A stretch of 64,000 nucleotides of DNA from a virus: IMG/VR virus record IMGVR_UViG_3300025949_000027, positions 3,954-67,953 of that record, one strand, 5' to 3'. The notes under the pieces are model-generated. The model worked only from the letters and a program-made list of their open reading frames with translations. It made no database searches and was not told where the DNA came from. The position numbers were made by a program, and so were the translations under genes. Below, piece by piece: positions 3,313-40,138 of the stretch (position 1 is the stretch's first letter; each line of letters starts with the position of its first letter).

Positions 3313-4551
3313 ATGGCAGCTCCCGCCGCAACAATCGCCAGCCTTGGCGCTGGCCTGCGACGCAGGTATTCCGACAAGTTCGTTTCCGCGATCGAGTGGT
3401 CCGCTGGTCCCGCCGCTGCGCAGGTGCGCAAGATCGGTTGGACTGGTTTCCCGACGTGGGCAATGCGGGTGGGCAACAGCCCGGCTCGTTCCGCCACGTT
3501 CGCGACGGCCCAGTCCCTCGCCGGAACGGCGTACACCAACATCGTTCAGCCGGTAATCCCGACGTACATGCAGGACTACGGTCTTGCAACGATCGAGGGT
3601 CGGCTGATGAAGGCCGCCGCCAACAAGGAGGGCGCCCTCTACGACAAGATGGTCGCCCAGATCGACGGGATCATGAAGGGGACGATGCACTCGTTCGCCA
3701 CCAAGATCTACCGGTCTGGCTACGGCGAGTTGTCGACGATCAACGCGGCCACGACCCTGGCGTCGACATCGCTGCAGTTGGCGTTCCCCGAGGACGCGGT
3801 TCTGTTCGAGATCGGCCAGTTCGTGCAGTTCGCGGCCAGCAACACGGCGGCGATGCGCAACTCCGGCGCGACCCTGCAGGTGCTCGGCATCGACTACAGC
3901 ACCGGCATCCTGACCATGTCGGCCAACATCAACACCGTTACCGGTGTTGCCGTCGGCGACGTGATCTACTCGCAGGACGACCGCGGCACGGGCGCTTCCC
4001 CGGCGAAGATCTGCATCAGCGGCTTCGAGGCGCAGTTCAACGACAACACCGCTCTGTTCGGCGTGACCCGCTCGGGTGACGGCCGTCTGCGCGGCTACTC
4101 GTTCAGCGGCCAGGGCCGCACCGAGGAAGACGTCCTGATCGAGGGATTGGCCGAGTCGGACCGCTTCGGCGGGAACATCGACGTGGTCTACATGAACCCG
4201 ACCCGCATGCGGAACCTGGTGAAACTCGCCATGGGCCGCTACCGCCCGACGGTGACCAAGGGTCCGGCGGGGATCGGCTTCAAGGGCATCTCGCTCGTGA
4301 CGGCCACGGGCCGCGAGGTGAACGTGTTCGCGGATCGGTACTGCCCGTATCTGCGCATCTTCGGGATCGAGAGCGAGTCGCTGCAGCTGTTCTGCGCCGA
4401 CAAGCCCAACATCCCGGCGTTCCTGGACGACGACGGCAACACCGTCCTCCGTCTGGCGAGCGCGGACGGCGTCGAGGCTCGCGTGGGCTACTACGCGGAG
4501 TTGGGCTGCAACGCTCCCATCCACAACTTCTGCGCGACGTTCACCAGCTAA
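3313..4551 (+). CDS. Major capsid protein
   Basis: 412 aa, own promoter and strong SD, strongly biased codon use, capsid-like segments (VVYMNP, VFADRYCP, C-terminal YAELGCNAP), followed by decoration/adaptor genes. Confidence 0.8.
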   Translation: MAAPAATIASLGAGLRRRYSDKFVSAIEWSAGPAAAQVRKIGWTGFPTWAMRVGNSPARSATFATAQSLAGTAYTNIVQPVIPTYMQDYGLATIEGRLMKAAANKEGALYDKMVAQIDGIMKGTMHSFATKIYRSGYGELSTINAATTLASTSLQLAFPEDAVLFEIGQFVQFAASNTAAMRNSGATLQVLGIDYSTGILTMSANINTVTGVAVGDVIYSQDDRGTGASPAKICISGFEAQFNDNTALFGVTRSGDGRLRGYSFSGQGRTEEDVLIEGLAESDRFGGNIDVVYMNPTRMRNLVKLAMGRYRPTVTKGPAGIGFKGISLVTATGREVNVFADRYCPYLRIFGIESESLQLFCADKPNIPAFLDDDGNTVLRLASADGVEARVGYYAELGCNAPIHNFCATFTS

Positions 4552-4580: not shown

Positions 4581-5045
4581 ATGCCCACCAACACAGGCGT
4601 TCAGACCCCGCACCCGGCCGCGGGTGTCATGGGTGTACTCGACGAGCTGACGTTCCACTGCCGCTTGGTCACCACGACGAGCGGCACGCTGGATACCACC
4701 CTGAACACCGGGACCTGGGCTCCGGCTGGAATCACGGTCACCAAGACCGCGACGAAGACCGGTCGCTACACGTTCAACATGCCGAGTTCGTTCCAGCGGC
4801 TGCTGAACGTCATCGCGACTCCGGTTGGCCCCGACGACGCCACCTACGGCGCATCGACCACTGGCGGCCCGGCGTACTTCGTTCGTGACGACGATGTCAC
4901 GGCGACGGTGTTCCGGGCTGGGTCGAACCAGGACGGCAGCTTCGAGCTGCAGTTCGTCCGCACGGACACCAATGCGGATGCCGAGTTGCCCGATGGGACG
5001 GCTGTCATGGTCACGATCATCGTGGCGCGAGGCAAGACGTTCTAA
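4581..5045 (+). CDS. Putative capsid decoration/minor head protein
   Basis: Thr-rich beta-type 154 aa directly after the capsid gene, GAGGAGG SD. Confidence 0.55.
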   Translation: MPTNTGVQTPHPAAGVMGVLDELTFHCRLVTTTSGTLDTTLNTGTWAPAGITVTKTATKTGRYTFNMPSSFQRLLNVIATPVGPDDATYGASTTGGPAYFVRDDDVTATVFRAGSNQDGSFELQFVRTDTNADAELPDGTAVMVTIIVARGKTF

Positions 5046-5368
5046 TGGGCGCCCTGCTGATCGAGATCCAGCGCCGGGCCAAGAACGGCAAGGGCGGTCA
5101 GCCTCCGATGGGTGACTACCCCGGCCCGGAGACGAAGGGTGACGAGGAGGACTCGGACCCCGACGCCATCCGGGAGGATGCTGCTCTGAACCTGGCGCGT
5201 GCCCTCGGAATCGACGAGGGAAGCGTGAACGTGCGCGAGCTCGCCGCTGCGCTCTCCGACTTCTGTCAAGCCGACGCCATGGCCGGCCGCTACGGCGGCG
5301 TGGACAAGGAAGAGGCCGACGAAGGCGGGCGCGGCGGACGCGGCGAGGAAATGTCCGAGGGCGAGTAA
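5045..5368 (+). CDS. Small acidic hypothetical protein (head module)
   Basis: TAATG coupling to the previous gene; 107 aa. Confidence 0.7.
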   Translation: MGALLIEIQRRAKNGKGGQPPMGDYPGPETKGDEEDSDPDAIREDAALNLARALGIDEGSVNVRELAAALSDFCQADAMAGRYGGVDKEEADEGGRGGRGEEMSEGE

Positions 5369-5393
5369 TCGCCTTCGGTTTAACCCGAAATCA

Positions 5394-5458
5394 CGAGCGC
5401 CGGCTGGGGCCGCGGAGGAGTTCGTATCCCGCGCCCACCGGCCGGCGCTCGGTCGTTT
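5394..5458 (+). terminator. Long intergenic hairpin (terminator or processing site after the head genes)
   Basis: CGAGCGCCGGC(5394-5404) pairs with GCCGGCGCTCG(5441-5451), with inner pairing; only a short U tract follows. Confidence 0.55.
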
Positions 5459-5475
5459 CCGGAGTTGCGTGACCG

Positions 5476-6372
5476 ATGAGCATCACCCGGGATCAGCTAC
5501 AGGCGCGCGCAGAGGCGATCGCAGACCAACTGCCTTCGACCTCGACCACGTTCGTTACGGCCGCCCAGGCCGCGGACATGGTCAACGACGGCATTCGGGC
5601 GCTGTACGACGACGCAATCGACGTCAACCCTGACTTTCGTGTCACCGAGGGGACGGTTTACAGCATCGTCTCGACGGCCGCGAACTTCATCCCGATCCCG
5701 GCCGACTTCCGGTCTGTCAGGGCGGTCGTTGCCGATCCTGGCACGCAGTACAGCGATCCGCTTCGTCGCGGACAGATGCGCTCCTTCGCCGACGGGTCGC
5801 TCCGTCGTTACTACCGCATTCAGGGAAGCCTGATTTACATCGAGCCGCGCGAGCGGGCGATCGGGAACTACCAGCTTCTCTACAACCCGTTGCCGCCAAC
5901 GCTGGCAAACGGGTCCGACACGCTCGACGTCGAACTGGAGCAGTTCCAGGACGTCATCTTCCTGCACGCCGCAGTGATGATGCTGACCAAGAACGAGTGG
6001 GACATCAGCAGCGTTGGTGCCCAACTCGCGGTCGCGAAGGCTAGGGCGGCTCGCTGGGCCCGCAACGCTCGGACCTCTGACCCGCCAATGGTCGAGGACG
6101 TCAGAAGCCCGCCGCGGTGGCGGTCGAACCTGACCGGAACCTCTTCGTCAACGCCAGCTTCAGGAGGCGACGTGGTCACGGTCGCAGCAACGATCCCGGC
6201 CCTTCAGGCGATCGACGTCTCTCAGTATTCGGGCGGCGCGATCTGCCTTGTCCTGACGACCAATCGAATCTACTACCTCGTTCCCAATACCGGGAACGCT
6301 GACGACAGCCTGACGACGGCCAACTTCGTCGACGCGCTGAACGGAGGGGGCAAGCAATGGCGCGGTCAGTGA
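5476..6372 (+). CDS. Head-tail adaptor protein with C-terminal extra domain
   Basis: N-terminal [10 protein letters not shown]...[11 protein letters not shown] helix pair, [11 protein letters not shown] and YQLLY..PPTL motifs typical of podovirus adaptors; position after capsid. Confidence 0.7.
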
Positions 6373-9350
6373 TGCGGCGCCTGGCGGCGGTCGCCTTCGT
6401 GGTGGCGTGCCTAGTCGCTTCGGCGCGACCGGCGCAGGCGACGACTATCCCGGCGGCGAACCTGTTCTCAAGCAAGACCGTCATTTGTAACGGCATCAGC
6501 TCGGGATCTGTCCAGTTATCGGCAATCGACGTGACCGGGCTCCCTAGTTACGCGACGCAGGCTTGGGTCATTACGTCGCAGGCGTGGTTCGACCTGGTCC
6601 CGAACACTGGTCTACCTCCCGATGGGGCGACGCTCATCAACGCGAACTCCACCGATAGCCGTCAGTGGAAGATCATCTCCACCGGCGGAGGTGGAGGGTC
6701 ACCGTCGGGACCGGCGGGCGGATCGCTGACCGGGACGTACCCGAATCCTGGATTTGCTGCTACCGGGGTAAGCGCCGGGGCCTACGGGGACGGTCAGCAC
6801 GTCGCCACGTACACCGTGGGCGCCGATGGTCGTCTGACGATCGCCGCAAGCTCAACCATTTCCATTCCCTCGACGGCCGTAAGCGACAGCACGTCACTGG
6901 GAAGGTCACTCATGACGGCAGCCAACGTGTCCGCGGCGCAGTCGTCGCTTTCCTTGGTTCCGGGAACCAACGTCCAGGTGTACGACAGCGACCTGGCGGC
7001 AATCGCCGCCCTGACAACGGCTGCCGACAAGTGCATCTACTTCACCGGTTCTGGCGCCGCCGCACTGTATTCCTGCACGGCCGCCGGTCGCACTTGGGCT
7101 GGCCTTGCTGACGCAACCGCAGAGGCTGGAGCACTGAGCCTAGCGTCCATCGGAGGAACCCTCCCGCTATCCAAGATGGCGACCGGCACCGCCGGCAACC
7201 TGATCACGTACGATGCAAGCGGTAACCCGGCATCGGTTGCCACTGGGACGACCGGGCAAGCTCTCCTTAGTAATGGCCCAGGTGCCGCTCCAACATTCCA
7301 GACGCTCGTCGGCGGCGGAAACGCCCTCACGACGAACCCTCTGTCGCAGTTCGCAGCAACTACATCGGCGCAGTTGGCCGGCGTCCTGACGAACGAGACA
7401 GGGTCAAACTTCGTCGTCTACTCGACTAATCCCGTCTTCGACTCCTGGAACGCCTACACAGAGATCGCGGCGCCAACGTCTCCCAGCGCCGGAACCGGGC
7501 GGGCCTGGGCCGATAGCACCGACCATCGCTGGCACGACAAGAACAGTTCAGGCGTCGTCGCTACGACCGTCGTCTCAAGCACCGCCGGTGCCAACCAGGT
7601 AGCGACGGGCGTCAGCGCTGCGGGCGTAGTTCAGTACACAACTGCGACTGCCCTGGCCTTCTCGGCGGCAATGTCCGACATGGGGACCTTCTCGTCATCG
7701 ACGCTCGCCGGCCGGATGACAGATGAGACCGGCACCGGCCTGGCGTGCTTTGCCACCAATCCAACGCTAACCGGCGCAACGATGGCCGGCGCCCTGCACC
7801 TCGGGGACAACCCGGTTGACCTGACGGTACACAGCGATGGGAACAAGACCGGTGCAAGCCCGGCTCTGGCTGACTTCTCGACCACCAGCAACCGCCACAC
7901 GTGGACCCTCACGGGCAACGTCACGGGAACGCCCACGTGGACCATCGGCTCCGCGAAGTCATTCCGCGTGTCCGTATGTCAGGACGGGACTGGCAGCCGC
8001 ACGATGGTCTGGCCATCGACACCGACCCTGACCTGGGTCGGTGGCTCTGCCCCGACGCTGACCACGACTGCCAGCGCCTGTGACCTGATCGCCTTCGACT
8101 ACGACGGAACGACGATCATTGGTCAGGCGGCTTCGGCGGGCGGCGGCGGCGGAATCACCGCTGGCACCGGTGACGTCACGTTCAGCGGTAGCGGCAGCGT
8201 CACCACGACGCTGGCTAACATCCCGAACGACGTACCGCAGGCCGGAGACATCCTGGTCACGAACACCGTCGCCCCGAGCACGCCCGCCGCCGGTAAGACG
8301 CGGGTCTACGTCGACAGCACGAACAAGGTCCTGTCGTCCAAGAACGACGCCGGAACCGTCACCCACGGCGTAGCCACGCAAACGTCCGTATCGAACCAGT
8401 GGGTAAAGACCATCGGCGCCGACGGCAGCGTCACGACCACGCAGGTGACGGTGCCTGACCTGGCATCGTTCGCGAGCTCTGCGCTACTTGCGAAGGTCAC
8501 CGACGCAACGGGAGCCTCGGGCGTGCTGGTGTTCAACGCCAACCCCGGGCTGACTGGCGCCCAGATGAGCGGGCAGCTCACGCTCAACGACAACCCGGAG
8601 ACGACCACCGAGCACGATGACGGTAACAAGACCGGCGCCGCGCCCGCGCTGGCGAACTTCAGTAACACCAGCAACACCCACAAGTGGACGTTGACCGGAA
8701 ACGTCACGGGAACGCCGACGTGGACGATGCCGAGTGCCGCGGCGATGCTCCAGGTCCGCGTCTGCCAGGACGCCACGGGCTCGCGGACGCAGACCTGGCC
8801 GACGTCGCCGACACTGACGTGGGTCAAGGGTTCGGCGCCAACCCTAAGCACGGCCGCTAGCGCCTGCGACCTGATCCGGTTCTGGTACACGGGCACGGCT
8901 CTCGTTGGGTACCCGATCGACGGGACGGCATACCTGCCGCTGGCCGGCGGAACAATGACCGGCGCCGTTGCGATGGGCGCCCAGAACATCACGAACATCA
9001 AGGATGCGTCGTGGGTCCACGCCACGGCCAGCGTTACCGGGGCCTCCCCGACCCTGGCCGACTGGACGACGGGCAACTTCATCACGATCACGCTGACCGG
9101 AAACGTCACGGGGACTCCGACGTTCACGGCGCCCACGCTCGGATCTGGCGGCGTCGCAAGGCTGACCCTTCGTATCAAGCAGGACGGAACCGGTAGCCGC
9201 ACCCTGTCCGCGTGGCCGACCGGCACCAGGTGGCAGAGCGGCACGGCGCCGACCCTGCCCACGGCCGCGAACTCCGTCTACTACGTTACCTTCTGGTACG
9301 ACGGCACGAACTACGACGGAGGCTACGGATCGTCGGGGGCGTGGCAATGA
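6372..9350 (+). CDS. Tail fibre-like protein with signal peptide and three repeated domains
   Basis: TGATG coupling gives [23 protein letters not shown]; fibre motifs [38 protein letters not shown]; Thr/Gly/Ser-rich. Confidence 0.8.
7810..9320 (+). repeat. Three internal copies of a ~95-aa fibre domain
   Basis: [11 protein letters not shown]...QD(G/A)TGSRT..WP...APTL...F(W/D)Y(D/T)GT at about 7810-8115, 8590-8900 and 9040-9320 (bounds approximate). Confidence 0.85.
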
Positions 9351-10294
9351 TCCGGAATCTCCGGAGAGTTGCCGCAGCCGTCCTGCTGGTCTGCGTCTCG
9401 GGCGGCGCTTCATTCGGGGCGACCGCTACCGTCCAGCACCGCATGACGGAGACGACAGGCACCAGCCTGGCCGACTCCGGTCCTGCGACCACGATCCCGC
9501 TCACGCTCACAGTGGGAAGCGGGGCGTTCTCGAGCATCACGGCCGGCAAGGGCTTCACCTTCGCGGCCAACGCCTGCGCGGACAGCGGCTCCCTGGCCAG
9601 TTCGAAGCTCGCCAATACGTCTACGGGGGTTGCATCGGCGACCCAATTGACCCTCGAAGTCGTTCTCGACACCACGAACGCTACGGCGTTCGACCAGATT
9701 TACGGGTTCAGCAACAGTACCTTCGACGAGTCCTGCGCCCTCTACATGGGGTCGACCGGGACGAACCAGATTTGCTTCGAGTGCCCGGCGGGGGCTGCCG
9801 TCTGTTACGACCAGACGCCTGGCTTTCACGTCCTGTACGCGATCTACGACTCGCCGAACGCGACCAGCTCCAGCCGTAACCTGCTCTACATCGACAACGT
9901 CCTTGCGACTGTCAACACCACGCCTACGGCTGCCGTCTATCCGACTCTGAACGCGGCGGCGGACGCGGGGTTCACCAACTGGGCAAACCAGCGCCTGGAC
10001 ATCGGGTGTTACGTCTCGACGGCCGTTGCTCAGGGCTTCGTCGGGCCAATCTACTACGCCGCCACGTACGCTAGGTACGTCTTCACTTCCGGCGACCGCA
10101 GCAGCCACTACACGGCACTGGTTGCCAACAACGACGCCGACCCGAACGGCGGCGCGGTCGCCAGTCCTGACCCGTTCTTCCTGGCCTACTCCATGGGACC
10201 TCTGTGCGGGGCTGGCGGGGGACGCGACGAAGCGGCGGGCGTGTGGTGGCCGTCGAGTGCGCCAGTCGACCACGCAATGTGGTGCGGCCTGTGA
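9347..10294 (+). CDS. LamG/concanavalin-like beta-sandwich protein with signal peptide
   Basis: ATGA overlap start [25 protein letters not shown]; [27 protein letters not shown] motifs of LamG-like domains. Confidence 0.65.
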
Positions 10295-12039
10295 GACTGG
10301 GGTCGGCTGCGTGCGCAGCGTTCTTTGCCTGTGTGCTGACGAGCGTGAGCGCGTTGGCCTACGGTCCGCTGGCCAGCCCGGCATGCGTTACCGGCTCGGC
10401 CACGGGGACGACCTACTACGCCTGTGACTGTCAGTCGGGAGCGCAGTCCGGGTGCGTCGCCGGCAGCAACGTAGCCGCTGGGACCTCGCCAGCAACCGCC
10501 TGGCAGACCTGGGAGAAGCTACGGACGCAAATCGTGGCGGCCCACGACGGTGACCGCTTCCTGGCGTGCCAAGGCGGCAGCTTCACCGTCTCGAACACGT
10601 CCATCGCGAACAGCAGCCTGACCGTCGGCGGCGGTGGCATCGCCATCAGCTCATACCAAGCCACGTGGGGCGGGGCCGGCGTGCGTCCCATCCTGACCGT
10701 ACCGGCGGCACAGGACGGCATCGACATCATCAGCGCGTCGGCGGCCATCGGCCCCTACATGATTGCCGACCTGGAGATCGTTGGTCTTGGCAACTCGTCC
10801 ATCTCCACGCAGGCGTTCGGGGTGTTCCTGTACGGAAACTCGACAGGCGTGACGATGTGCAACCTGTACATTCACAACATGCAGATCGCCTCGAACGTTG
10901 CTCGCAACGTCGAGACGGACCGGCAGACGAACACCACCATCCGCGACTGCACCTTTACGGACAACTGGGGCCAGGGGTTCCTGGGTGGCGGCGAGAACTT
11001 CTCCATCATCCGTTCGTACCTGGCCAGGAACGGCACGCGGACGTCGCTCGACCACAACATCTACCTCGTCGGCGCGAACGGCAGCGACTCGACGCAGCCG
11101 AGCGACACGATGCTGATCCAGGACAACGAGATCACGCAGACGGCATGGACCGCTGGCACCGGCTGCCAGGCGGCGGAGATCGTCGTCCACGGTCTGATGG
11201 CGAACCTGACCATCAAGGGCAACTACATCCACGAGGCCATCGGTACTATCGACCCGGGCTGCTGGGGGATCGCCCCTGCCCCCGGCTACGTCTACACGGA
11301 GAAGATGACGAACGTCATCGTCGACAGCAACCGCATCGAGAACGTCGGTAACGTCAGCATCGCGGCCGGGTCGTGGAACGGCGGGTCCATCCGCAACAAC
11401 GTCATCACCAACGTCCAGTCGCCGTCGGTCAACGACAAGGCGATCAGCATGTCGGAGAACGAGTGCCACTCGACGGGCACCGGATCGTGCTCAGACAGCG
11501 GCGGGCTTCCGGCGGGCGGAACCGACTTCACGCTGACCGGCGTGTCGGTAGTCAACAACTCGATCAATCTCAACACCGGAACCGCTCTCGGCATCCTGAA
11601 CGGCGGCAGCGGGTACTACGCGGTCAACAACGCCGTGTATTTCAGCGGCGGAACGTCTACGTGCTTCAGTTTTCCGCTGTCGACCGCATCCTACACGATG
11701 GTCGACTACAACCTCTGCTTCATCAGCGGAGGCACGGGAAACCACTGGCAATCATCGCAGTCGCTGGCCACGTGGACAGGTGCCACCGGCTTCGACACGC
11801 ACAGCCTGATCGTGACGCCGTCGTTCATCTCGGTCGCGTCTCCTTACAACCTTGCGGTACTAGCGGCATCGCCGCTGGTGAACGCCGGCAACACCGCGAA
11901 CGGGTCGTCGTCTGACATCCTCGGCACCACCCGACCTCAGCAGTCCATCACGGACATCGGGGCTTACGAACTCCTGGGCGCCATCGGCTCTATCGGCCTC
12001 GCGCCGCGGGCCCTGTTCATGTACGGGCCGGGGTTCTAG
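10291..12039 (+). CDS. Right-handed beta-helix (depolymerase/adhesin-like) protein with signal peptide and choice-of-anchor-Q-like C-terminus
   Basis: GTGA overlap start [23 protein letters not shown]; repeating I.NN.I strands; DHNIY motif; SPLVNAG..DILGTTRPQ..DIGAYE. Confidence 0.75.
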   Translation: MRLGSAACAAFFACVLTSVSALAYGPLASPACVTGSATGTTYYACDCQSGAQSGCVAGSNVAAGTSPATAWQTWEKLRTQIVAAHDGDRFLACQGGSFTVSNTSIANSSLTVGGGGIAISSYQATWGGAGVRPILTVPAAQDGIDIISASAAIGPYMIADLEIVGLGNSSISTQAFGVFLYGNSTGVTMCNLYIHNMQIASNVARNVETDRQTNTTIRDCTFTDNWGQGFLGGGENFSIIRSYLARNGTRTSLDHNIYLVGANGSDSTQPSDTMLIQDNEITQTAWTAGTGCQAAEIVVHGLMANLTIKGNYIHEAIGTIDPGCWGIAPAPGYVYTEKMTNVIVDSNRIENVGNVSIAAGSWNGGSIRNNVITNVQSPSVNDKAISMSENECHSTGTGSCSDSGGLPAGGTDFTLTGVSVVNNSINLNTGTALGILNGGSGYYAVNNAVYFSGGTSTCFSFPLSTASYTMVDYNLCFISGGTGNHWQSSQSLATWTGATGFDTHSLIVTPSFISVASPYNLAVLAASPLVNAGNTANGSSSDILGTTRPQQSITDIGAYELLGAIGSIGLAPRALFMYGPGF

Positions 12040-12041
12040 CC

Positions 12042-13199
12042 ATGCCGACCATCGTACGCAGGCCGACTGGTTCCGAGGCTGGCGACCTCTACAACGAGCT
12101 CCTCAAGAATCGCCACCTCAACCCGGAGTTCGCTCCCGAGTTGAAGGCGATCACGTGCGACACGGTGGCTACCCTTCGAACCGTCAAGGGCGACCTGGCT
12201 GGCAACGCTGGCCCTCGATGCGTCGTCCTGAACGCGACCTCGACTCCTGGCGACGGCGGGGCTGGCATCTTCTACTGGCACAACACGATCGCTGGCGCCA
12301 ACGGGGCCAGCATCGACGACAACGGAACGACGTACGTCCAGGTCATCGGAACTGACGGGAACTTCGTCACCCCAGGGGCTTGGGTCAGGATGCAGTTTGC
12401 GCGGACGCCCGACCAGCAGACGTTCTCTGCAAGCGGAACCTGGACAAAGCCAACGGGCGCCGCCTGGGTGCGGGTCGAACTGATCCCGTGGGGCGCGAGC
12501 GGAGCCGGTGGCGCGGCGAACATTGGGGTAGGCGGTCGTGCCGGAGCTGGGTCAGGCGTTGGCTTCTGGGAAGGCCCCGCTTCGCTCCTGGGGGCCACCG
12601 AATCGTTGGCCTTCGGGTCCCAGCCGGCCGGTGGGGCTGGCGGCATCTTCGGCGGCGCCGGTCCCGTCAATGGCACGGACGCCCCGGATGCGACCTTCGG
12701 TCAGTGGCTTCGCGTGAAGGGCGGTACCGCTGCCGGGGTAGGCGGATACGGCAACCTAGGAACGGGGGGTGCCGGCGGGGCCGCCACGGTAGCGGGAAGC
12801 GCTGGCACCGGGCGAGCCGCAGGAGGCGGAGCCGGCGGCGGAACTGGCGGTAACCCCGCTGGCACTGCTGGCGCTGCTGGCGGGGCAGGCGGAGGACAGG
12901 ACCGCGCTACGGCGCTCGCCGGAGGTACCGCCGGGGCCGCTGGCACGGGCTCCGTAAACGCCACGTCCGGCGGCGCGGGGACATCCGCCGCAACCGGAGA
13001 AACAACGGGGGGCGCTGGGGGCGGCGGTGGCGGCGGTGGCGGAACACTTGCCGGGGCTCAGCCCGGGCAGGCCGGCGGAGACGGTGGCGGGTACGGCGGG
13101 GGCGGAGGGGGCGGAGGCGGCGGATCAACAGGCCGAAACGGAGCTGCAGGCGGCAAGGGCGGCCAGTGCTTCGGGAGGGTGACGACATGGTTCCAGTGA
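12042..13199 (+). CDS. Glycine-rich tail fibre/adhesin with tailspike-type N-terminal domain
   Basis: TVATLR..PGDGGAGIFYW..DDNG..GAWVR docking-type domain, then QTFSASGTWTKPTG and polyglycine tracts. Confidence 0.75.
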   Translation: MPTIVRRPTGSEAGDLYNELLKNRHLNPEFAPELKAITCDTVATLRTVKGDLAGNAGPRCVVLNATSTPGDGGAGIFYWHNTIAGANGASIDDNGTTYVQVIGTDGNFVTPGAWVRMQFARTPDQQTFSASGTWTKPTGAAWVRVELIPWGASGAGGAANIGVGGRAGAGSGVGFWEGPASLLGATESLAFGSQPAGGAGGIFGGAGPVNGTDAPDATFGQWLRVKGGTAAGVGGYGNLGTGGAGGAATVAGSAGTGRAAGGGAGGGTGGNPAGTAGAAGGAGGGQDRATALAGGTAGAAGTGSVNATSGGAGTSAATGETTGGAGGGGGGGGGTLAGAQPGQAGGDGGGYGGGGGGGGGGSTGRNGAAGGKGGQCFGRVTTWFQ

Positions 13200-13283: not shown

Positions 13284-13949
13284 ATGGGGAAGATCCCGAT
13301 GGGAAAATTCAAGAAGCGTCCGATCGCTCCGGATGGAACCAAGACTTGTTCGATCTGTCTAATCGCGAAGCAAACGTCAGAGTTCAAGGCGAATGCGCTT
13401 GCGAAGACAGGGATCTCTTCGATATGCAAACCATGCGCCCGTGATCGCGCCAAGATCTACATGGATCGAGTGATGGCAAGACCTGGTGCTCGCGAAAAAA
13501 AGCGCTTGGTCGACGCAATTGCGAGAAACAAGAATGGCGCACTTGAGCGAAGGCGGGCGGTGATTGCAGCTAACTGTTCGGCGCGCGCAAAAGCGGAAGC
13601 GGCGCTGTGGCATCGCAACAACCATCTCAAGAAGAAATATGGCATCACGCTGGAAGAGCGAGATCGCATTGTTGCTAGCCAGGGCGGAAGATGCGCGATT
13701 TGCCTAACCGAGAATCCGGGCGGAAAAGGCCGCAGGCTTGGAATTGACCATGACCACAGCGACGGCAGGATCCGTGGTGCCCTGTGCAATAACTGCAACC
13801 GAGGCATCGGTCACCTGAAGGACTCTGTCGCAAGTCTCAGGGCTGCCATAGAATACCTAGAGGCATCCAACCTGGAAGCAGTGTACAAGTCGATCGCAAG
13901 TCGCGCTGATATCGGTCTTACTTACGGATCTGGTGTCACATGCCGCTAA
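13284..13949 (+). CDS. Endonuclease VII-family (HNH-type) homing endonuclease
   Basis: KTCSIC..ICKPC zinc site, LKKKYGIT, QGGRCAIC, IDHDHSDGRIRGALCNNCNRGIG; more AT-rich than its neighbours. Confidence 0.9.
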   Translation: MGKIPMGKFKKRPIAPDGTKTCSICLIAKQTSEFKANALAKTGISSICKPCARDRAKIYMDRVMARPGAREKKRLVDAIARNKNGALERRRAVIAANCSARAKAEAALWHRNNHLKKKYGITLEERDRIVASQGGRCAICLTENPGGKGRRLGIDHDHSDGRIRGALCNNCNRGIGHLKDSVASLRAAIEYLEASNLEAVYKSIASRADIGLTYGSGVTCR

Positions 13950-16942
13950 GTCCAACTCCTATTTCATGGGATCTTACCGGAGGACTTGACACCGACAGTG
14001 GTCCATTAACAGTTGTACCTGGATCGCACCTAACTCTCGACAACGCAATTCAAGAGAGGCGCGGAGAGTGGAGGTCGCGTAACGGAACGACCGTCAGCGA
14101 TCAGGACACTCTCCCGAACGGGATCGCTCCGACGATCGGAAAGATCGGAGACGCCGGCATGTTCGCCCTCAACTCCACTCTCGGCACGTACCAGCCGTCT
14201 CTTACGTCGAACCGCTGGACTAACGGACTCATCCCGTCTGGACTTCAGACCAACTACGACATTTCCCGCGTTCCTGTGGTGGCCAGCGATAACCCGGTGT
14301 TCGGATTCGCGCAGTATGGGAACCTGTACATCATCGCAAACCTTGACAGCGTCGCTCCATCGATCGCCGTTTTCGATTCGCAGGGCAAGACGCACACGAA
14401 GATGTCATTGCCTGCGGGAACGTACATCCGCGCCCGGTGCGCCGCGACGGCCAGCAGGCTGGTCGCGTACGTAGCTGACTCGTCCGGAAACCTGGTCGCT
14501 TACGTGGTGAACGCGTCTACGGGAGCAGTTACCAGCGGAACCATCAAGACCGGCCTGCACACAACCGCACCATTCATGGCAGCGCTCTGGGATGGATCGT
14601 CGGCGACGATTACGGTCGTAGCGCGACTGGCGGCTGGCGACGCTGTCCGTTTCATGGAGCACAATCCAGCGACGGGCGCACTGGCAACAGATGTATCGCT
14701 GGCGGCGATCGTAGGTAACAGCGCGCTTTCGCTGTTTCAGGACTACTCGAACAGCGGTATCCGGTTCGTCGGGGTCTCTGATACTACCGGACCGACCGTA
14801 CGGGTTCTCCGCGTGACGTCAGCTGGGGCGATCTCGACAAACTCGCTCGTCAGTAGCACGGTAGCCGCGACGGCTATCACCGGAGTCGGATGGTCGTCTG
14901 GTGCGAACTGGTCAGCGGTCTACTGCGACGCCAGCGCCTTCAAGTCTCTGCGCATCGCGCGACTGATCGGAGGCATCGTAACGGACGCTGCCGTTATCAA
15001 CGGAGGGTCCCTGAACGTGACCATCTCCCTGGATGGCGAGGCGTGGTCCGCCGACGGAACCTCGTTTCAGTTCTTGCTCGGGTATCACAGCAAGACGGCT
15101 AGTGATCCGCAGGACTCGTGGCAGATGGCATCGGCGACCATGTCCGGTCTGACGAACGTCGTGTGGAGAAACGGACGGATTGCGCCTCTCCAGGCCCAGG
15201 CCTACATGCTAGGGTCGGCGACCACTCAGTCTGCTCTCTTTCAGAGAAGCGGCGCCGGCTCTGACGTGTCGAAGTTTGCACTGCCCGTGCTGGCGTCGTA
15301 CGCGCTGACGGCGGGAACCGCCAAGCGGCAATACTCGCTTGACGTCTTCACGCAGCAGATCCTGGGAAGTGCTGACATCGGTACTGACGTCAACCGCGGG
15401 TTCTCAGTTCAGTACAAGCAAACCGCGTTCATCCCTGGACCTGACGCGTGCTTCCTGGATGAAGGCAAGTTGTCTCCGATCGGCACCCCTGTGCCGCCAC
15501 CGCAGCCGGTTGGTGCAGGCGGAGGCGCCGGGTCACTGACTCTGCTCGGGACGTACAACTACGTTGACGTCTGGGAGGTCCTGGATAGCGACGGTAATGT
15601 GTGGCGAAGCCCGCCTAGTGTTCCGTTCACAATTACCCTGACGGGCGGCCAGCAGTCCGTGAACTTCAGCGACGTGGAGTCGCTCGGCCTAAACGGAACC
15701 TTCGGCGGCAGCGCGCAGCAGCGGTTCCGCTTGAAGCGCTACCGTACTGCCAACCTCGGAACGGTCTATCGGCTAGTGGCAACTGTGGATAGCAGCGCAT
15801 CGGACTCTTTCCAGCCGAACATCACGGACACGGCGTCGGACGCCAGCATCGTCAGTAGCGAGGTTCTGTATACAACTGGTGAGTTGTCGACGGCCATCAC
15901 GCCACGGTTCTCCCATATGGCTACCTTCGGCGACCGCCTATGGGGAGTAAATGCCGACTATCGAACGGAGGTGTGGCCATCGAAGAATCTTCGTTCCGGT
16001 CGGCAGCCTGAGTTTGTCGAAGAAGGTGTAGTCGACATCGACGATAACTACGGTGACATCACTGGGATCGTCGGCCTAGACGGCAACGGCGTAGCCTTCA
16101 AGCGCACGGCGATCTACTTCATCGTCGGCGATGGACTCACGGACGCGGGCAGCGGTCAGTCACACACGTACCAGCAGGTCGCCACTGGCGTAGGGGCGAT
16201 TCCTGGATCTCCGATCGTAGTCTCAGGTGACAAAGTATTCTTCGTGAGCGACCGAGGCATCTACTCCATCGACCGCGGCGGCAACCTCGCGTACATCGGT
16301 TCCGGCGTCGACAAGTGGTTCAACCAGCCACTCATCCAGGCTCCCGAGCGCGTGTACGACGGCCTCTTCGCGCCCAAGCAGAACGAGGTCAGGTTCGTCA
16401 CCACGAACTACATCCTGGTCTACGACCTGAAGTACAACACCTGGACCCGCTGGACCGGGCTTTCCGGGATGCGCCGGTGCCTGCTCATCAATGACAAGAT
16501 GGTCATGTTCAAGACCGACGGGACGGTCTGGCGCGAAGGCGACGAGACGGTCAACACCGACAACGGAACGCCCTACAACGGCATCATCCGAAGCGCGTGG
16601 GTGCGGCCGACGGACTTCGGGCAGATTCGGCTGTACCGTGGCCTAGTCCTCGGAGAGCGAACGTCGGGAGGCGGAAACGTCACTCCCACGATGCAAATCT
16701 ACGAGGACAACTCCGACACGCCCGTCCAGTCGCTCAGTCCGTCGTCGCCCATCTCCGGGGCTACGCTGGTTATCCAGGCAGAGGCGCGGCCTCAATTTCA
16801 GAACTGCTCAACGTTCTCACTCCAGATCACCCTGCCACCGTCCGACATCACGACGCGACTTGCCAAATGGGGGGCAGAGATCGGAGTACGACAGCCGAGA
16901 GCCCAGAAGCGGTCCGTAGCCGGCGGCGGAAGCTGGCAGTAG
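13940..16942 (+). CDS. Tail nozzle/DNA-stabilisation-type structural protein
   Basis: 1000 aa; N-terminal LTGGLDT..LDNA..RNG; propeller-like FGDRLW, FKRTAIY, FFVSDRGIY, VYDLKYNTWTRW segments. Confidence 0.7.
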   Translation: MPLSPTPISWDLTGGLDTDSGPLTVVPGSHLTLDNAIQERRGEWRSRNGTTVSDQDTLPNGIAPTIGKIGDAGMFALNSTLGTYQPSLTSNRWTNGLIPSGLQTNYDISRVPVVASDNPVFGFAQYGNLYIIANLDSVAPSIAVFDSQGKTHTKMSLPAGTYIRARCAATASRLVAYVADSSGNLVAYVVNASTGAVTSGTIKTGLHTTAPFMAALWDGSSATITVVARLAAGDAVRFMEHNPATGALATDVSLAAIVGNSALSLFQDYSNSGIRFVGVSDTTGPTVRVLRVTSAGAISTNSLVSSTVAATAITGVGWSSGANWSAVYCDASAFKSLRIARLIGGIVTDAAVINGGSLNVTISLDGEAWSADGTSFQFLLGYHSKTASDPQDSWQMASATMSGLTNVVWRNGRIAPLQAQAYMLGSATTQSALFQRSGAGSDVSKFALPVLASYALTAGTAKRQYSLDVFTQQILGSADIGTDVNRGFSVQYKQTAFIPGPDACFLDEGKLSPIGTPVPPPQPVGAGGGAGSLTLLGTYNYVDVWEVLDSDGNVWRSPPSVPFTITLTGGQQSVNFSDVESLGLNGTFGGSAQQRFRLKRYRTANLGTVYRLVATVDSSASDSFQPNITDTASDASIVSSEVLYTTGELSTAITPRFSHMATFGDRLWGVNADYRTEVWPSKNLRSGRQPEFVEEGVVDIDDNYGDITGIVGLDGNGVAFKRTAIYFIVGDGLTDAGSGQSHTYQQVATGVGAIPGSPIVVSGDKVFFVSDRGIYSIDRGGNLAYIGSGVDKWFNQPLIQAPERVYDGLFAPKQNEVRFVTTNYILVYDLKYNTWTRWTGLSGMRRCLLINDKMVMFKTDGTVWREGDETVNTDNGTPYNGIIRSAWVRPTDFGQIRLYRGLVLGERTSGGGNVTPTMQIYEDNSDTPVQSLSPSSPISGATLVIQAEARPQFQNCSTFSLQITLPPSDITTRLAKWGAEIGVRQPRAQKRSVAGGGSWQ

Positions 16943-17030: not shown

Positions 17031-17501
17031 ATGAAGTTGGCGGCGTTCGGACTGGTGTTCATGGCTGCACTTGCGGCCGGCTGCGGAGACATCAAGCTCG
17101 TCCCCGAGGCGGACAAGATGGTCGACGCCCCGGCCGATGCGAGCCGCGCCGAGGGACTGATCGCGTCGACCTATCAGATCCCGGCTTCGGAGATGTCGTA
17201 TCTCGAGGTCTACTGGTACGGCGGGGCGGCCCTGAACTGCAACGACGGCGGCTTCATCGCCCGCGACGGACATACCTGCGTCGGCGGAGAGCACCTGGAC
17301 GGAGTGATCATCGTGGCCCGCGACGATCGTTCTTCCCTGTCGGGGACCGGATACCTCGCCCATGAGATGCTCCACTTCAAGCTTGGCCTGGACGGCGATC
17401 CTGACGAGACGCATTCCCGGCCCGAGTGGGGAACTACCTGGAACCATCCTCGCGGCTTGCTGGACGTCGCGAACGACGCCCTGGCCGCCGCTGGGATGTG
17501 A
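17031..17501 (+). CDS. Putative lipoprotein with HExxH motif
   Basis: MKLAAFGLVFMAALAAGC lipobox; LAHEMLH. Confidence 0.65.
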   Translation: MKLAAFGLVFMAALAAGCGDIKLVPEADKMVDAPADASRAEGLIASTYQIPASEMSYLEVYWYGGAALNCNDGGFIARDGHTCVGGEHLDGVIIVARDDRSSLSGTGYLAHEMLHFKLGLDGDPDETHSRPEWGTTWNHPRGLLDVANDALAAAGM

Positions 17502-17510: not shown

Positions 17511-17951
17511 TCAGCGCTGGCGAACGAAGGTGTCTTTGAACCCGCGAGCCGTGCGGGTCCACATGGTATCGCCGTTTAGCACGTAGACGAGAGAAGCGGT
17601 TTCTGGCTTGCTGTCGAACCGCAGGACGATGTCGTGTCCGGTGGCTGCCGAGTACCTACCTGATCCGGCGATCTTCTCCGTAGGCCGCGAGTGCCTAGCG
17701 TCAACCTGTGCGATGAAGACCGAGAACGTACCGTCGGCCCGCAGGGTAAGGAAGTCGCGTCCCGAGGGGTCGGCCTCTGACGGATCCTCGAGCCAGCGAC
17801 CGACCAGCGGGTCATCATCCACGGTCGCCGATGGCGCCACGGGCGCCAACACAGAGCCGGAGGCGTGGACGTCCCCCTGATTGCTCACCGTCGTCAGCGC
17901 CGCCCCGAACAAGATCATGACCCCCGCCACCCAAGCCGTCGTCTTCAGCAT
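17511..17951 (-). CDS. Exported/membrane-anchored protein, lipocalin-like beta-barrel
   Basis: Hydrophobic N-terminus; DPLVGRW..LTLRADGTF motif; lone reverse-strand gene; start uncertain (17951 or 17969). Confidence 0.6.
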   Translation of the reverse strand: MLKTTAWVAGVMILFGAALTTVSNQGDVHASGSVLAPVAPSATVDDDPLVGRWLEDPSEADPSGRDFLTLRADGTFSVFIAQVDARHSRPTEKIAGSGRYSAATGHDIVLRFDSKPETASLVYVLNGDTMWTRTARGFKDTFVRQR

Positions 17952-26946: not shown

Positions 26947-27381
26947 ATGTTTTCAGGACGCTCTGTTTCTTCGGTCCGTAGTCTGATCGCTTGCGCCGCG
27001 CTGGTCGCGGTTGTCGTTTGCGGGACTTCCTGTGCCACCACTGGCACCCCCGGCCCGGCCGCCTCCGTTCCCGCCCAGATTGCCGCCGACTGCGGGGCGC
27101 CCGTCCTGCGAGACGAGGCCACGCATCTGGTCGACGACGTCGCGTCTGCCCTGGAGACGTCGACCGACTGGCAGGCCGCGCTGAAGGCCCTCGGGAACAC
27201 GCAATACGACCGCCTGAAGGCCGACACCTGGCCGGCCATCAAGTGCGCCGTGGGCGAAGTCCTGGGGCGGACCGACGCGCAGCTCGCGGCCCGCTCAATG
27301 ATGGACGAGGACGCGGCGAAGCTGACCCAGCGGCGGCACGACCGGGCGGCGCAGTGGCTGTCGGAGCACCCCGCGCCGTGA
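26947..27381 (+). CDS. Putative lipoprotein (possible spanin-like role)
   Basis: Hydrophobic signal ending VVVCGTSC; first gene of the operon that contains the lysis genes. Confidence 0.6.
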   Translation: MFSGRSVSSVRSLIACAALVAVVVCGTSCATTGTPGPAASVPAQIAADCGAPVLRDEATHLVDDVASALETSTDWQAALKALGNTQYDRLKADTWPAIKCAVGEVLGRTDAQLAARSMMDEDAAKLTQRRHDRAAQWLSEHPAP

Positions 27382-28377: not shown

Positions 28378-28665
28378 GTGATGACACCTCCGTTTCACCT
28401 GACCACCAAGGCGCTGACGATCCTGGCCCTCTGCATGGCAGTCGCCATGTGGTTTTTCAAGGCAGCCAAGGGGCTCCACATGCCGTTCGGGATGACCACC
28501 GACGACGTGCTGACGGGCCTCGGGAATCTCGGGATCTTGCTGGGCATCAACGGCGCTGGCCTGCTTCCAGGGCAAACCCTGCTGAAGAACGCCGACGCCG
28601 TCCGCGAGCAGATCGCCGTGCAGGCCACTCAAATCGCCGACGACAAGGAAGCGGTCAAGCCGTAA
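28378..28665 (+). CDS. Putative holin
   Basis: 95 aa, two hydrophobic segments, charged C-terminus, GTG-ATG adjacent starts. Confidence 0.55.
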   Translation: MMTPPFHLTTKALTILALCMAVAMWFFKAAKGLHMPFGMTTDDVLTGLGNLGILLGINGAGLLPGQTLLKNADAVREQIAVQATQIADDKEAVKP

Positions 28666-29840: not shown

Positions 29841-30160
29841 GCGACGCTGAGACGATCCAACAGATCGCCGACGACGCACTGACCGTAGCGGAGCACCTGG
29901 GGTTCGCTTGCCCGCCGCTGATCTTGAGTGCCGCAGTCGCGAAGGTTGCGGTTGACATCGGGTTCGCGATCTTCCTTCGGTTGGCCGCCAAGTCCATCGT
30001 CGCGCAACGGGCGGCGCAGGTGGCAGGAGTGGCCGCGGCCGAGTCTCAAGCCGTCACGTCGGCCATGGCCCGGCTGCGCGCTCCGCTCCCGCGCATCTGC
30101 ACGCCGTGCGCGATGGCGTTGGCTGACCATCTCGCCGCTACCGGGGAGGCCAAGCCATGA
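29837..30160 (+). CDS. Hypothetical protein
   Basis: GTGA overlap start, [15 protein letters not shown]. Confidence 0.55.
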
Positions 30161-30236
30161 GGCCGGTCGACATCATCTTCCTCGTCACGCTCGTCTACCT
30201 GATCGTGCGGGACAGCCACCCGCCCGGCGGTGTCGG

Positions 30237-30932
30237 ATGAGCCGCGGACTCATCGCCTTCAACGCCGCTCGACACGCCAACCGCTCGGACCCCACCATGA
30301 CCACCGAAGAAGCCACCAAGTATGCCCACCTGAACGACGGACGCCGCCGCAAGGTTCCCAACTGCGGGACGTGCGGGGAGAAGGGCCACCGCTCGACGAG
30401 CCGCAAGCATCACCCGGCGGTCCATGTGGTTCCCGACGTCGTCCCGTGCCTGGAGACGGTGCGCAACCAGAAGGCCGACGATGGCGCCGCGTTCCACCGA
30501 CAGAGCCGGACGATCTGGGGCGACCGTCCGCTGTCGAAGAAGGAAAAGCGCGCGGCGGCGCTGGTGGTTGTCGACGATGACGAGAGGCCGAAGACGCGCG
30601 GTGACTGCAAGGATGGGCCGCGGCCATGTGCCTACGTGTCTTGTTCGCATCACCTGTACTTGGACGTGACGGACGACGGCTCGCTGAAGCTGAACCACCC
30701 GCATCTCGAACCGTGGGAGTTGCGCGAGACGTGCGCCCTTGACGTGGCGGACCGGGGCCCGATCACCCTCGAAGAGACCGGCGCCAACTTGGGCCTAACG
30801 CGTGAGCGCGTCCGCCAGATCGAGGAGCGCAGCCTTCGCAAGTTGCGCCACCATACGCCGCGCGAAGCGGCGGAAGACATGCACGACCCCGGATCTTCCG
30901 GGCCGCCGAGTCAAGCAGGAACGATCTGGTGA
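30237..30932 (+). CDS. Cys-rich sigma-70 region-4 HTH DNA-binding protein
   Basis: [51 protein letters not shown]; N-terminal CGTCGEKGH knuckle; start uncertain. Confidence 0.8.
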
Positions 30933-30942: not shown

Positions 30943-31422
30943 GTGAACGAACTAGCAGCGAAAGCAATCGAACTGGCTCTGACTCAGGTCGGAGTGCGCG
31001 AGCATGGGCGGAACCGGGGACCGGAGATCGACGGGTACTGCCGCGACATCGGCCACGACGCGACCAAGGCGGATCCGTGGTGCGCGATCTTCGTGTCCGC
31101 CATGGTCAAGCGGTCCGCCGACGCGCTCGGCGTTCCCGTGCCGATCCACCTGACGGCCGGCGTCTGGACGCTCGACGAGAAGGCCCCCCCGTACATGCGG
31201 ACGCTTCACCCGGTAGCCGGGTCGATCTTCATCGTCGGTGGCCACCGTCACACGGGGTTTGTCACAGCAGTCGACGCGGACGGTACGATCCACACGTGCG
31301 AGGGCAACACGAACCCTGGCGGGTCAGCAGAGGGCGACGGCGTCTACGCGCGCACCCGGCGGCGCTCCGAACTCATGGGGTTCATCGACCTGTCAGCGGA
31401 GGCGGCGCCACTCGCGGCGTGA
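30943..31422 (+). CDS. CHAP-domain endolysin
   Basis: QVGVRE..NRGPEID..PWCAIFV..HTGFV..EGNT..GDGVY; AAGGAG SD before GTG. Confidence 0.85.
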   Translation: MNELAAKAIELALTQVGVREHGRNRGPEIDGYCRDIGHDATKADPWCAIFVSAMVKRSADALGVPVPIHLTAGVWTLDEKAPPYMRTLHPVAGSIFIVGGHRHTGFVTAVDADGTIHTCEGNTNPGGSAEGDGVYARTRRRSELMGFIDLSAEAAPLAA

Positions 31423-31426
31423 CCCA

Positions 31427-35038: not shown

Positions 35039-35176
35039 CCGATCGGACGGGTACGCACCAACAACGCCCCGCGTCTGACAGAATTTCCGTCGTCCACCGT
35101 CGATCCTTGACCGTCGCGTCACAATCGACCGACGCTCGGGAAGAATCCTGTCAGACGGTCGTTCCCGTCCGCGTAC

Positions 35177-38034: not shown

Positions 38035-38220
38035 TCAGGCGGGCCGGATGCTGGTGGCTGCGTGCTCGTAGAAGTTCAACTTGCCCCACTTCCGTTTCGT
38101 GTGACCCTTGAACCACGCCAGAAACTCCCGATAGCACCGGCCGCACCGGGCCACGTCGAACCGGCGATCGTAGTCGCCAGTCGCCGGGTGGAATGGGCCG
38201 CGGCAGCACGAGCACCTCAT
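38035..38220 (-). CDS. Small Cys-rich protein
   Basis: ATGA overlap; MRCSCC..ARCGRCY. Confidence 0.55.
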   Translation of the reverse strand: MRCSCCRGPFHPATGDYDRRFDVARCGRCYREFLAWFKGHTKRKWGKLNFYEHAATSIRPA

Positions 38221-39326: not shown

Positions 39327-39369
39327 GGTCGTCTCCCGTTCGCCAGTCTACGCGCGCGCCGCTCGGCGG

Positions 39370-40110: not shown

Positions 40111-40138
40111 GATCGCATCCTCCTGTCAACTGGCCGCC

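Follow-up and report, generated by a model that had tools for sequence, protein, structure and literature searches.

The window analysed here is a stretch of 64,000 nucleotides with a G+C content of about 65%, namely bases 3954-67953 of the 67,953-base IMG/VR virus record IMGVR_UViG_3300025949_000027, for which CheckV gives a completeness of 47%. It holds a run of three overlapping open reading frames (ORFs), ORF1, ORF2 and ORF3, that follow a gene for an adaptor of the SU10 type and whose products, a fibre-like protein, a LamG-like protein and a beta-helix, each begin with a signal peptide of the Sec type. For tailed phages, the accepted view is that fibres and tailspikes reach their folded and assembled state within the reducing cytoplasm. 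The genes of this part of the window, all on the plus strand, are:

5476..6372, plus strand: SU10-type adaptor gene, 298 amino acids (aa); phrog_2941 'virion structural protein', 1.3e-5; PF24175 via a homologue
6357/6372..9350, plus strand: ORF1, fibre-like; 997 aa from ATG 6357, 992 aa from ATG 6372
9347..10294, plus strand: ORF2, predicted LamG/concanavalin-A-like jelly-roll, 315 aa; similarity in the ESM Atlas
10291..12039, plus strand: ORF3, Cys-rich right-handed beta-helix, 582 aa; Pfam PF13229
12042..13199, plus strand: fibre-like gene without signal; N-terminal domain and Gly-rich C-terminal part; kept after the adaptor in related phages
13284..13949, plus strand: endonuclease VII; Pfam PF02945 1.2e-24; phrog_2633; between the fibre and nozzle-like genes
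13940..16942, plus strand: nozzle-like virion protein, 1000 aa; phrog_3287 'virion structural protein' 2.1e-11

An earlier note on this DNA had placed the trio between the adaptor and nozzle genes. The adaptor end of that statement is upheld through a homologue, P0173, described below; at the other end, two more genes (12042-13199 and 13284-13949) come before the nozzle-like gene.

We confirm, from the translated sequences, that ORF1, ORF2 and ORF3 each begin with a basic n-region, a hydrophobic core of 15-17 residues and a small-residue cleavage site. The n-regions read MRR in ORF1 (from ATG 6372), MIRNLRR in ORF2 and MR in ORF3 (or MVRPVR from an upstream GTG), and the cores, of 15, 16 and 17 residues, are uncharged and below membrane-span length. 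Cleavage sites (marked by an arrow) are clear in ORF1, where the signal ends at about nt 6440 (..PAQA↓TT, that is A-Q-A↓T), and in ORF3, where it spans nt 10291-10359 (..SALA↓YGP, that is A-L-A↓Y). For ORF2, with its signal at about nt 9347-9421, the site is ambiguous between G-G-A↓S, G-A-S↓F and F-G-A↓T and was placed by aligning homologues that begin with M-ATPLL. No lipobox is found in ORF2 or ORF3. The core of ORF1 holds a lipobox-like V-V-A-C, whose Cys is not kept in the homologues P0022, P0026, P0027, P0061 and P0132, all of which have A-x-A sites. On a home-made and crude n/h/c-region heuristic, run over all frames with high G+C at third codon positions (GC3), ORF1, ORF2 and ORF3 score 39.7, 34.5 and 35.1. 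Scores of at least 33 are reached by four other ORFs of at least 94 aa in the 64 kb (17031-17501, 17511-17951 on the minus strand, 26947-27381 and 28381-28665). Of these, one encodes a lipoprotein, another a protein resembling a lipoprotein, and the other two encode proteins with membrane helices. High scores are also obtained for some short antisense frames.

The genes overlap start-to-stop. ORF1 could begin at ATG 6372, which overlaps the upstream stop (TGATG), but the more likely start is the in-frame ATG 6357 with a GGAGG (6343-6347) 9 nt upstream; the signal peptide is retained from either. A frameshift fusion of the adaptor with ORF1 across the overlap at 6303-6372 was considered and dropped, as no slippery site was seen by eye and ATG 6357 has its own GGAGG. 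ORF2 starts at ATG 9347 within an ATGA overlap with the ORF1 stop, and ORF3 at GTG 10291 within a GTGA overlap with the ORF2 stop, where the in-frame GTGs at 10279 and 10282 merely add Arg to the n-region; the next gene starts at 12042. The next ORF1 start past the hydrophobic core, a GTG in AIDVTG, would cut the conserved domain, and there is no later in-frame start that spares the conserved domains, which speaks against true starts downstream of the hydrophobic segments, a possibility named in the earlier note. No promoter- or terminator-like sites above chance were detected for the trio. These features and the overlaps fit co-expression with the late tail genes.

The case for the signals comes from comparison among homologues. 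The closest relatives of ORF3 (P0007-P0011, 50-70% identity) have signal peptides in all five cases and an ALA↓YGP site in four of them, with signals that differ in sequence, and the distant, bacterial-type relatives have signal or lipoprotein-type N-termini. In ORF1, the signal is followed by an N-terminal domain (N-domain) of about 75 residues, which is common to eight complete proteins and comes directly after the signal peptide in every one of them; a ninth protein is cut at its 5' end. Signal-like N-termini, as scored by the heuristic, occur in 47 of the 149 best ORF1 representatives and in 13 of the top 20. ORF2 has four relatives (P0002-P0005) in 5.8 billion proteins, all without a signal peptide, and all four start with M-AT(P/T)L, aligned to the residue right after the predicted ORF2 cleavage site. 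The ORF2 family shows gain or loss of a signal peptide directly and with one-residue precision. Three of these signal-less relatives (P0002-P0004) carry a Pro-rich extension of about 230 residues with W-x-P-D-like repeats. The Sec-type N-termini described in the earlier note are therefore present as quoted and conserved, both in homologues and in the syntenic trios described next, and we consider export of ORF1-3 very likely on this comparative evidence.

The same trio recurs in two other, unrelated phages. A profile of the ORF1 N-domain found four metagenome loci, and a related-locus search with the N-domain alignment found none in viral contigs or genome contigs. One of the metagenome loci, L003 (20 kb of a 48.6 kb contig), has the same three genes in the same order with a signal on each: MGLSRRLLWGLFVGVLLCSPAALA↓APP, MRRLRALIALAVLAISPVAHA↓ATPLLLYK and ..ALLVAPPALA↓YGP. 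The second case, L046, emerged when the ORF1 repeat domain was used in a reference-only scan; its record has 87,462 bases and is 100% complete according to CheckV. Here the first gene encodes a signal-bearing fibre (P0024), the second a signal-bearing LamG protein (MRRLQKLLLALVMLLASAPAAA↓TTPLALYK; profile E 8.6e-28), and the third a signal-bearing protein of 610 aa that is weakly related to ORF3 (E 1.8e-4). All nine genes of the three syntenic trios (window, L003, L046) bear signals, which are conserved in character and not in sequence. At L004/L005, a signal-bearing fibre is followed by another signal-bearing gene. A single-query locus search gave no ORF2 or ORF3 relatives in viral contigs.

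The C-termini recur as well. The LamG proteins of the three trios end in WCGL, GCSL and GCAL (window 10283-10294; L003 13518-13530; L046 7698-7709), and the third proteins in LFMYGPGF, LFLSGGGF and LFLYGGF (window 12022-12039; L003 15264-15287; L046 9461-9493), tails that are kept even where the third proteins themselves are barely alignable. This conservation suggests that the parts of the trio work together, and the tails may be sorting or partner-binding peptides.

The Cys pairs to which the earlier note had pointed (VCQD...ACDL) are real. A domain of about 120 residues occurs in ORF1 in three copies (7800-8171, 8583-8957 and 8988-9347), two of which have the Cys in both VCQD and ACDL and the third neither. 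The two Cys columns covary in another 38 copies, drawn from 21 proteins: both Cys are present in 20 copies, neither in 18, and one alone in none. Copies with both Cys account for 19 of 30 in signal-like parents versus 1 of 8 in signal-less ones (Fisher p=0.016, for copies that are related and not independent), and among ORF1 homologues the 47 signal-like ones have a median of 0.83% Cys and the other 102 one of 0.22% (Mann-Whitney U test, p=2.5e-5), where signal heuristic and Cys statistics again rest on related sequences. Among eight IMG/VR loci retrieved with a reference-only query, the pair is present in all three signal-bearing ones (L046, L051 and L052) and in none of the five signal-less ones, and the 'putative tail fiber' of MW202476 has the repeat domain without Cys pair and without signal peptide. 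The Cys content is 2.9% in ORF2, 2.6% in ORF3, 0.3% in the adaptor and 0-0.2% in the ejection-like proteins. The counts support the view that the Cys pairs behave like disulfides and track signal peptides. The disulfide pairs predicted, in P0020 numbering, are C541-C575 and C803-C837. One of the three signal-bearing loci, L052 (a 179,687-base record with terminal repeats and 44% G+C), has three signal-bearing genes at 5011-6273, 7598-10129 and 10116-10877, and this run opens with a fibre-domain protein that carries the Cys pair. Such runs of signal-bearing genes may be widespread beyond the high-GC trio.

The earlier note had called all three genes fibre or adhesin genes, a description that applies to ORF1 only, ORF2 being LamG-like and ORF3 a beta-helix. 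ORF1 is, by its sequence matches, a mosaic of tail-fibre modules. Its N-domain (about nt 6441-6686) is followed by a Gly-rich linker and shaft modules; a phmmer search returns 11,451 matches at E<=1e-3, and the modules match features named 'putative tail fiber', 'tail fiber protein' and 'minor tail protein' in nine deposited phage records. Signal-bearing ORF1-like proteins also lie on long bacterial contigs, for example P0023 (4066 aa) on an 882 kb contig. When modelled with AlphaFold2, the N-domain reaches a predicted local distance difference test score (pLDDT) of 75-84 over residues 10-80, and the model offers a lead that the domain is a trimerisation or neck domain. The best VIA-align rows are tailspike 'neck' domains, namely Fri1 gp49 204-272 (Z 6.8), CBA120 TSP2 and WceF 167-230 (Z 5.3), and the collagen XV/XVIII trimerisation domain appears at Z 4.6-4.8. 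The tailspike neck/trimerisation rows have Z 4.9-6.8 over 54-62 residues, with a root-mean-square deviation of 2.2-3.0 Å in most top rows and 7.1 Å in one, and all N-domain rows lie below the VIA-align caution line of Z 8. Foldseek of the same model against the PDB gave no match below E=1, and the best ESM Atlas score, 0.84, is a lead only.

For ORF2, the ESM Atlas gives a score of 0.96, with Laminin_G_3 clusters in 21 of 30 hits and an Atlas model at a template-modelling (TM) score of about 0.7. A Pfam hmmscan of ORF2 gave no match, PF13385 included, and its AlphaFold2 model, built from six sequences, was poor (mean pLDDT 39) and left unused for fold search. Searches of PDB sequences, by phmmer or profile, returned nothing meaningful for ORF1, ORF2 or ORF3.

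ORF3 is a right-handed beta-helix, as judged by its match to PF13229 Beta_helix (29.9 bits against a cut-off of 25.9, residues 168-315). The mature protein opens with a Cys-rich N-cap, which is common to the bacterial homologues and has an invariant Y-x-C-D-C...C...G, and there is no N-terminal virion-anchor module. Homologues occur in 22 bacterial loci, at 25-35% identity, and the assemblies of the bacterial relatives belong to Chloroflexota, Myxococcota, Bdellovibrionota, Bacteroidota and Gammaproteobacteria. Four bacterial loci were examined, and in two of them, L015 and L009, the ORF3 homologue stands beside exosortase EpsH, glycosyltransferases and sugar-nucleotide enzymes. In the first of these, from Myxococcales, an exosortase fused to an Rce1-like CAAX protease domain (L015 12839-14506, minus strand) lies two genes from the ORF3 homologue, a curious fusion, as the phage LamG proteins end in C-x-L. 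Of the five close relatives, four (P0007, P0008, P0010 and P0011) have a C-terminal membrane helix and a conserved tail of about 55 residues (..IDEHTTAALEEM..GIGLPVNEHCE.C..), and the ORF3-type proteins of the window and L003 end where that membrane helix would begin. A predicted C-terminal anchor with a cytoplasmic tail would be the topology of an envelope enzyme, not of a virion part. The topologies appear complementary, with membrane-anchored ORF3 relatives on one side and signal-less, Pro-rich-extended ORF2 relatives on the other; P0004 and P0010 may lie on one contig, as we infer from the 13,779 bases that both list in ENA.

The adaptor was recognised through its homologue P0173 (75% identity), which matches PF24175 SU10_adaptor at 1.9e-10 and 42 bits (cut-off 27); another homologue, P0187, reaches 27.1 bits. 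The window adaptor itself has no Pfam match even at E<=1, and a profile of 19 homologues finds no PDB chain by sequence. It carries an extra C-terminal domain of about 80 aa (about nt 6121-6369), present in only two of 20 homologues (P0171 and P0172). These two adaptors are 80-83% identical, and the C-terminal domain shows 67-74% identity among the three adaptors. It is homologous to the ORF1 N-domain, with an hhalign probability of 93.9% (E 1.5e-7) and, by a hidden Markov model of our own, E 1.7e-6 in 21 sequences. The extra domain may be a docking handle or a remnant of cassette insertion. Complex prediction for the adaptor with the ORF1 N-domain (residues 24-113) scored 0.00, which is no answer and was not used either way. 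The idea that the ORF1 N-domain equals the N-domain of the signal-less fibre at 12042-13199 was rejected, at an hhalign probability of 0.2%.

A profile of the adaptor retrieved 15 related IMG/VR loci, with the order capsid-position gene, small gene, adaptor of about 218 aa, nozzle-like gene and ejection-like genes. Related loci keep the nozzle-like gene, with 30-38% identity, downstream of those for adaptor and fibre. A signal-less gene like the N-terminus (about 100 aa) of 12042-13199 lies between adaptor and nozzle in 12 of the 15 by tblastn, and in L035 and L043 the signal-less fibre gene was recognised from reading the ORFs. ORF1, ORF2 and ORF3 are found in none of the 15 loci, and the four of these records that are complete genomes with direct terminal repeats (37-52 kb) contain no ORF3 family member and no ORF1, with the window's own record scored as positive control. 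In L003, the trio sits downstream of the ejection-like genes, a different place from that in the window; in L046 it adjoins signal-less fibre-like genes, and a SU10 adaptor is not detectable in that genome (G006). Because it is absent from the 15 related loci, four of them in complete genomes, sits at a different site in L003 and is present without a SU10 adaptor in L046, the trio is, by gene content and order, a horizontally mobile accessory cassette and not part of the core receptor-binding apparatus. The earlier suggestion of receptor-binding parts thus fails as far as a conserved set is concerned, since the relatives that lack the trio keep the signal-less fibre.

The name 'nozzle' is inferred from PHROG match, size and position; profile searches of PDB sequences and Pfam searches with six nozzle-like proteins gave no match, and tblastn against deposited phages gave nothing for the nozzle-like protein or for the capsid-position protein at 3313-4551. 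The endonuclease VII gene is not at this place in the related loci L031, L035, L038 and L043. For the majority of window proteins there is no Pfam or PHROG match, and PHROGs gave none for 12042-13199, seven L046 proteins and two L003 proteins. No tRNA genes were found in the window, and a GH26 match in it is partial. Further genes that could be assigned are:

17031..17501, plus strand: predicted lipoprotein (MKLAAFGLVFMAALAAGC..), from the n/h/c-region scan
29928-30932 and 31217-32152: two sigma-70-like genes, regions 2 and 4 detected
35111-36274: Acyl_transf_3 / O-antigen-acetylase-like membrane protein; PF01757 2.4e-25; phrog_3333, phrog_6705
38217-40125, minus strand: Thg1-like tRNA-His guanylyltransferase adjoining RlaP nucleotidyltransferase; RNA repair, auxiliary
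43324-45758, minus strand: NAMPT-like gene adjoining a phosphoribosyltransferase (PRTase); salvage of nicotinamide adenine dinucleotide (NAD), auxiliary

A predicted lipoprotein ORF after the nozzle-like gene is also seen in L003 (3266-3676). The occurrence of both Sec and lipoprotein signal types suggests a host with two membranes. The O-antigen-acetylase-like gene is a second sign of a phage that alters host surface glycans.

T5 Llp, Cor and lambda Lom/Bor are exported phage proteins encoded beside tail-fibre genes, and several such proteins adjoin receptor-binding genes and mask or alter receptors. Like these and like endolysins, the trio consists of phage-encoded proteins with Sec signals that would act in the envelope of the infected cell; unlike those small lipoproteins, outer-membrane or muralytic proteins, it comprises a large virion-type fibre, a predicted lectin and a tailspike-like protein. 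A review discusses signal peptides, in the text available, only for endolysins, including signal-peptide and signal-arrest-release (SAR) endolysins (PMC6116005). In phage SU10, as described in the accessible parts of its report, the genes for adaptor, long tail fibre, short fibre, nozzle and needle follow one another, the long fibres docking on the adaptor and the short ones on the nozzle, with no mention of signal peptides in those parts (PMC9509320). ORF1 resembles long fibres of the SU10/T7 type in its fibre architecture and in its position directly after a SU10-type adaptor and before a nozzle-like gene. Unlike SU10 fibres, ORF1-3 carry signal peptides and are missing from related phages, which keep one signal-less fibre.

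Two bacterial systems come closer in architecture, so far as the portions of the papers at hand describe them. The mosaic adhesive trimer (MAT) fibres of Bdellovibrio bacteriovorus have a signal peptide and a conserved N-domain and work off the virion (PMC10769870). ORF1 is likewise a tail-fibre-like mosaic with a signal peptide, then a beta-rich N-domain and variable modules, a likeness of architecture only. MAT fibres are chromosomally encoded in a predatory bacterium and deployed on the predator surface, and their N-domain measures about 130 aa; ORF1, with about 75 aa, is encoded in a phage tail operon among virion genes and travels with a LamG gene and a beta-helix gene. WceF of Pantoea stewartii is a tailspike-like enzyme acting on exopolysaccharide (EPS), with P22-like head and neck domains, which is exported by twin-arginine translocation (Tat) (PMC7949094). 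ORF3 is similarly a signal-bearing, tailspike-like right-handed beta-helix of an EPS-linked family, and the ORF1 N-domain model aligns to the 'neck' of WceF. ORF3 differs from WceF in its Sec-type signal, its Cys-rich N-cap, the lack of a head domain and its being phage-borne.

The recurrence of the signal-bearing trio in two further, unrelated phages suggests that phages export proteins of the tail type from the cytoplasm. What the proteins do there can be put as a model, to which we give about an even chance: the trio would be a Sec-exported, disulfide-folded module of fibre, lectin and glycan enzyme that works in or on the infected cell's envelope, with release at lysis. The cassette would be expressed with the late tail genes, and the host Sec system would carry all three products out, with signal peptidase I removing their signals. 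Folding, with disulfides, would take place in the oxidising periplasm, where ORF1 would become a long, probably trimeric, tail-fibre-like adhesin, ORF2 a lectin of the LamG type and ORF3 a beta-helix enzyme resembling a tailspike. The module would then act on or bind the envelope polysaccharide of the infected cell, and with the glycan cleared or masked, progeny would not be trapped and the cell would not be re-adsorbed. At lysis it would be set free as an extracellular complex, without having been built in during cytoplasmic virion assembly. We favour a free envelope module because the cassette is dispensable and mobile, because ORF3, a member of an enzyme family of EPS loci, lacks an anchor module, because its close relatives are membrane-tethered, and because MAT fibres and WceF act off the virion. 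The earlier note had offered both a separately released extracellular complex and exported receptor-binding parts loaded onto particles; the former is the option that we prefer, and of the latter the signals, the Cys pairs, the adaptor and the long-fibre slot stand, and loading onto particles is conjectural.

Several observations weigh against a free envelope module. ORF1 is built from modules that occur in genuine tail fibres. With about 990 aa it seems long for a fibre that works in the periplasm, and there is no evident way through the outer membrane ahead of lysis. In each of the three contigs, the trio belongs to the tail-fibre region, and in the window it occupies the slot of the SU10 long tail fibre, going by the published gene order as far as it was available. 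The homology of the adaptor C-domain with the ORF1 N-domain hints at a link between ORF1 and the virion. Moreover, the signals were scored by a crude heuristic of our own making, and the LamG-like fold of ORF2 comes solely from language-model and Atlas similarity.

Some of these points speak for auxiliary receptor-binding proteins that would be exported by Sec, folded with disulfides in the periplasm and docked on finished particles at lysis, perhaps via the adaptor C-domain that copies the (trimerisation) N-domain of ORF1, so that virion assembly would span two compartments. We give this a lower but appreciable probability. The long-fibre slot beside the SU10-type adaptor, the overlaps of the genes with those of adaptor and fibre, and a content of fibre, lectin and tailspike-like protein as in branched receptor-binding complexes would all be accounted for, as would the restriction of the homologous C-domain to the closest adaptor relatives of the window (2 of 20), the signal-less fibre-like genes beside the L046 trio, and the resemblance of the N-domain model to tailspike neck/trimerisation domains at Z below 8. 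However, related complete phages make virions without the trio, an anchor module is missing from ORF3, whose close relatives are tethered to the membrane, and the ORF1 N-domain is unrelated to that of the conserved signal-less fibre. A full-text literature search, with most subscription journals and supplements outside it, turned up no Sec-signal-bearing tail fibres of tailed phages. No virion protein of a tailed phage is known to be Sec-exported, nor do we know of a description of virion assembly across two compartments in Caudoviricetes. A cargo for the benefit of the host (a moron), that is an adhesin/EPS-modifying set serving the lysogen in, for example, biofilm or surface remodelling, seems improbable to us. 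It could draw on the signal-bearing ORF1-like proteins of long bacterial contigs (P0023), on the bacterial and EPS-tied character of the wider ORF3 family, on one signal-bearing relative in a provirus-classed record (L051/G007) and on the O-antigen-acetylase-like gene of the window. It sits badly with genes that are packed start-to-stop into the late tail operon and show no promoter- or terminator-like sites above chance, with the lack of an integrase or repressor among the window proteins scanned, and with a trio that keeps to tail-fibre regions in three unrelated phages.

The route of export is the issue in a further alternative, in which the fibres would fold and trimerise in the cytoplasm and be exported folded by Tat, as stated for WceF, whose Tat signal is described in the accessible text (PMC7949094). 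We assign this a low probability. Arg-Arg does precede the core in ORF1 (MRRLAAV), ORF2 (LRRVAAA), L003-A (SRRLLW), L003-B, L046-B, P0047 and P0061. However, the remainder of the S/T-R-R-x-F-L-K consensus is missing, the n-regions are short and the cores strongly hydrophobic, many family members have Lys-only n-regions (MKKLLGVL, MKTITRILF, MKRAVAIV, MKWAVV), and Cys pairs that track signals argue for folding after export. Finally, there might be no export at all, the N-termini being uncleaved helices (membrane anchors or docking peptides) or mis-called starts, which we regard as very improbable. It is true that open frames often extend upstream of the true start in a genome of 65% GC, and that ORF3 starts with GTG and is without a clear Shine-Dalgarno sequence. 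Against this, later in-frame starts would damage conserved domains, cores of 15-17 residues are short for a membrane span and are followed by sites of the A-x-A type, the segments vary in sequence and keep their n/h/c character across homologues, and the signal-less ORF2 relatives begin exactly at the end of the signal.

At least three unrelated phages thus have, among their tail genes, a conserved and mobile set of three genes that carries export signals and Cys pairs of the disulfide type, and other viral contigs hold more fibre genes with signals, at three of the eight loci sampled. Predictors of receptor-binding proteins or depolymerases that ignore signal peptides will mis-assign such genes. 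If the free envelope module is correct, the trio would represent a new class of phage 'exoproteins', expressed late and remodelling or binding glycans of the host surface, which would matter for superinfection exclusion, plaque halos, the clearing of biofilms and the discovery of depolymerases. If the proteins are instead loaded onto virions, the picture of how tailed-phage particles are completed would change. In either case, receptor-binding modules of phages are linked to exported look-alikes in bacteria, the MAT fibres and WceF, which suggests two-way traffic with gain or loss of the signal peptide as the switch.

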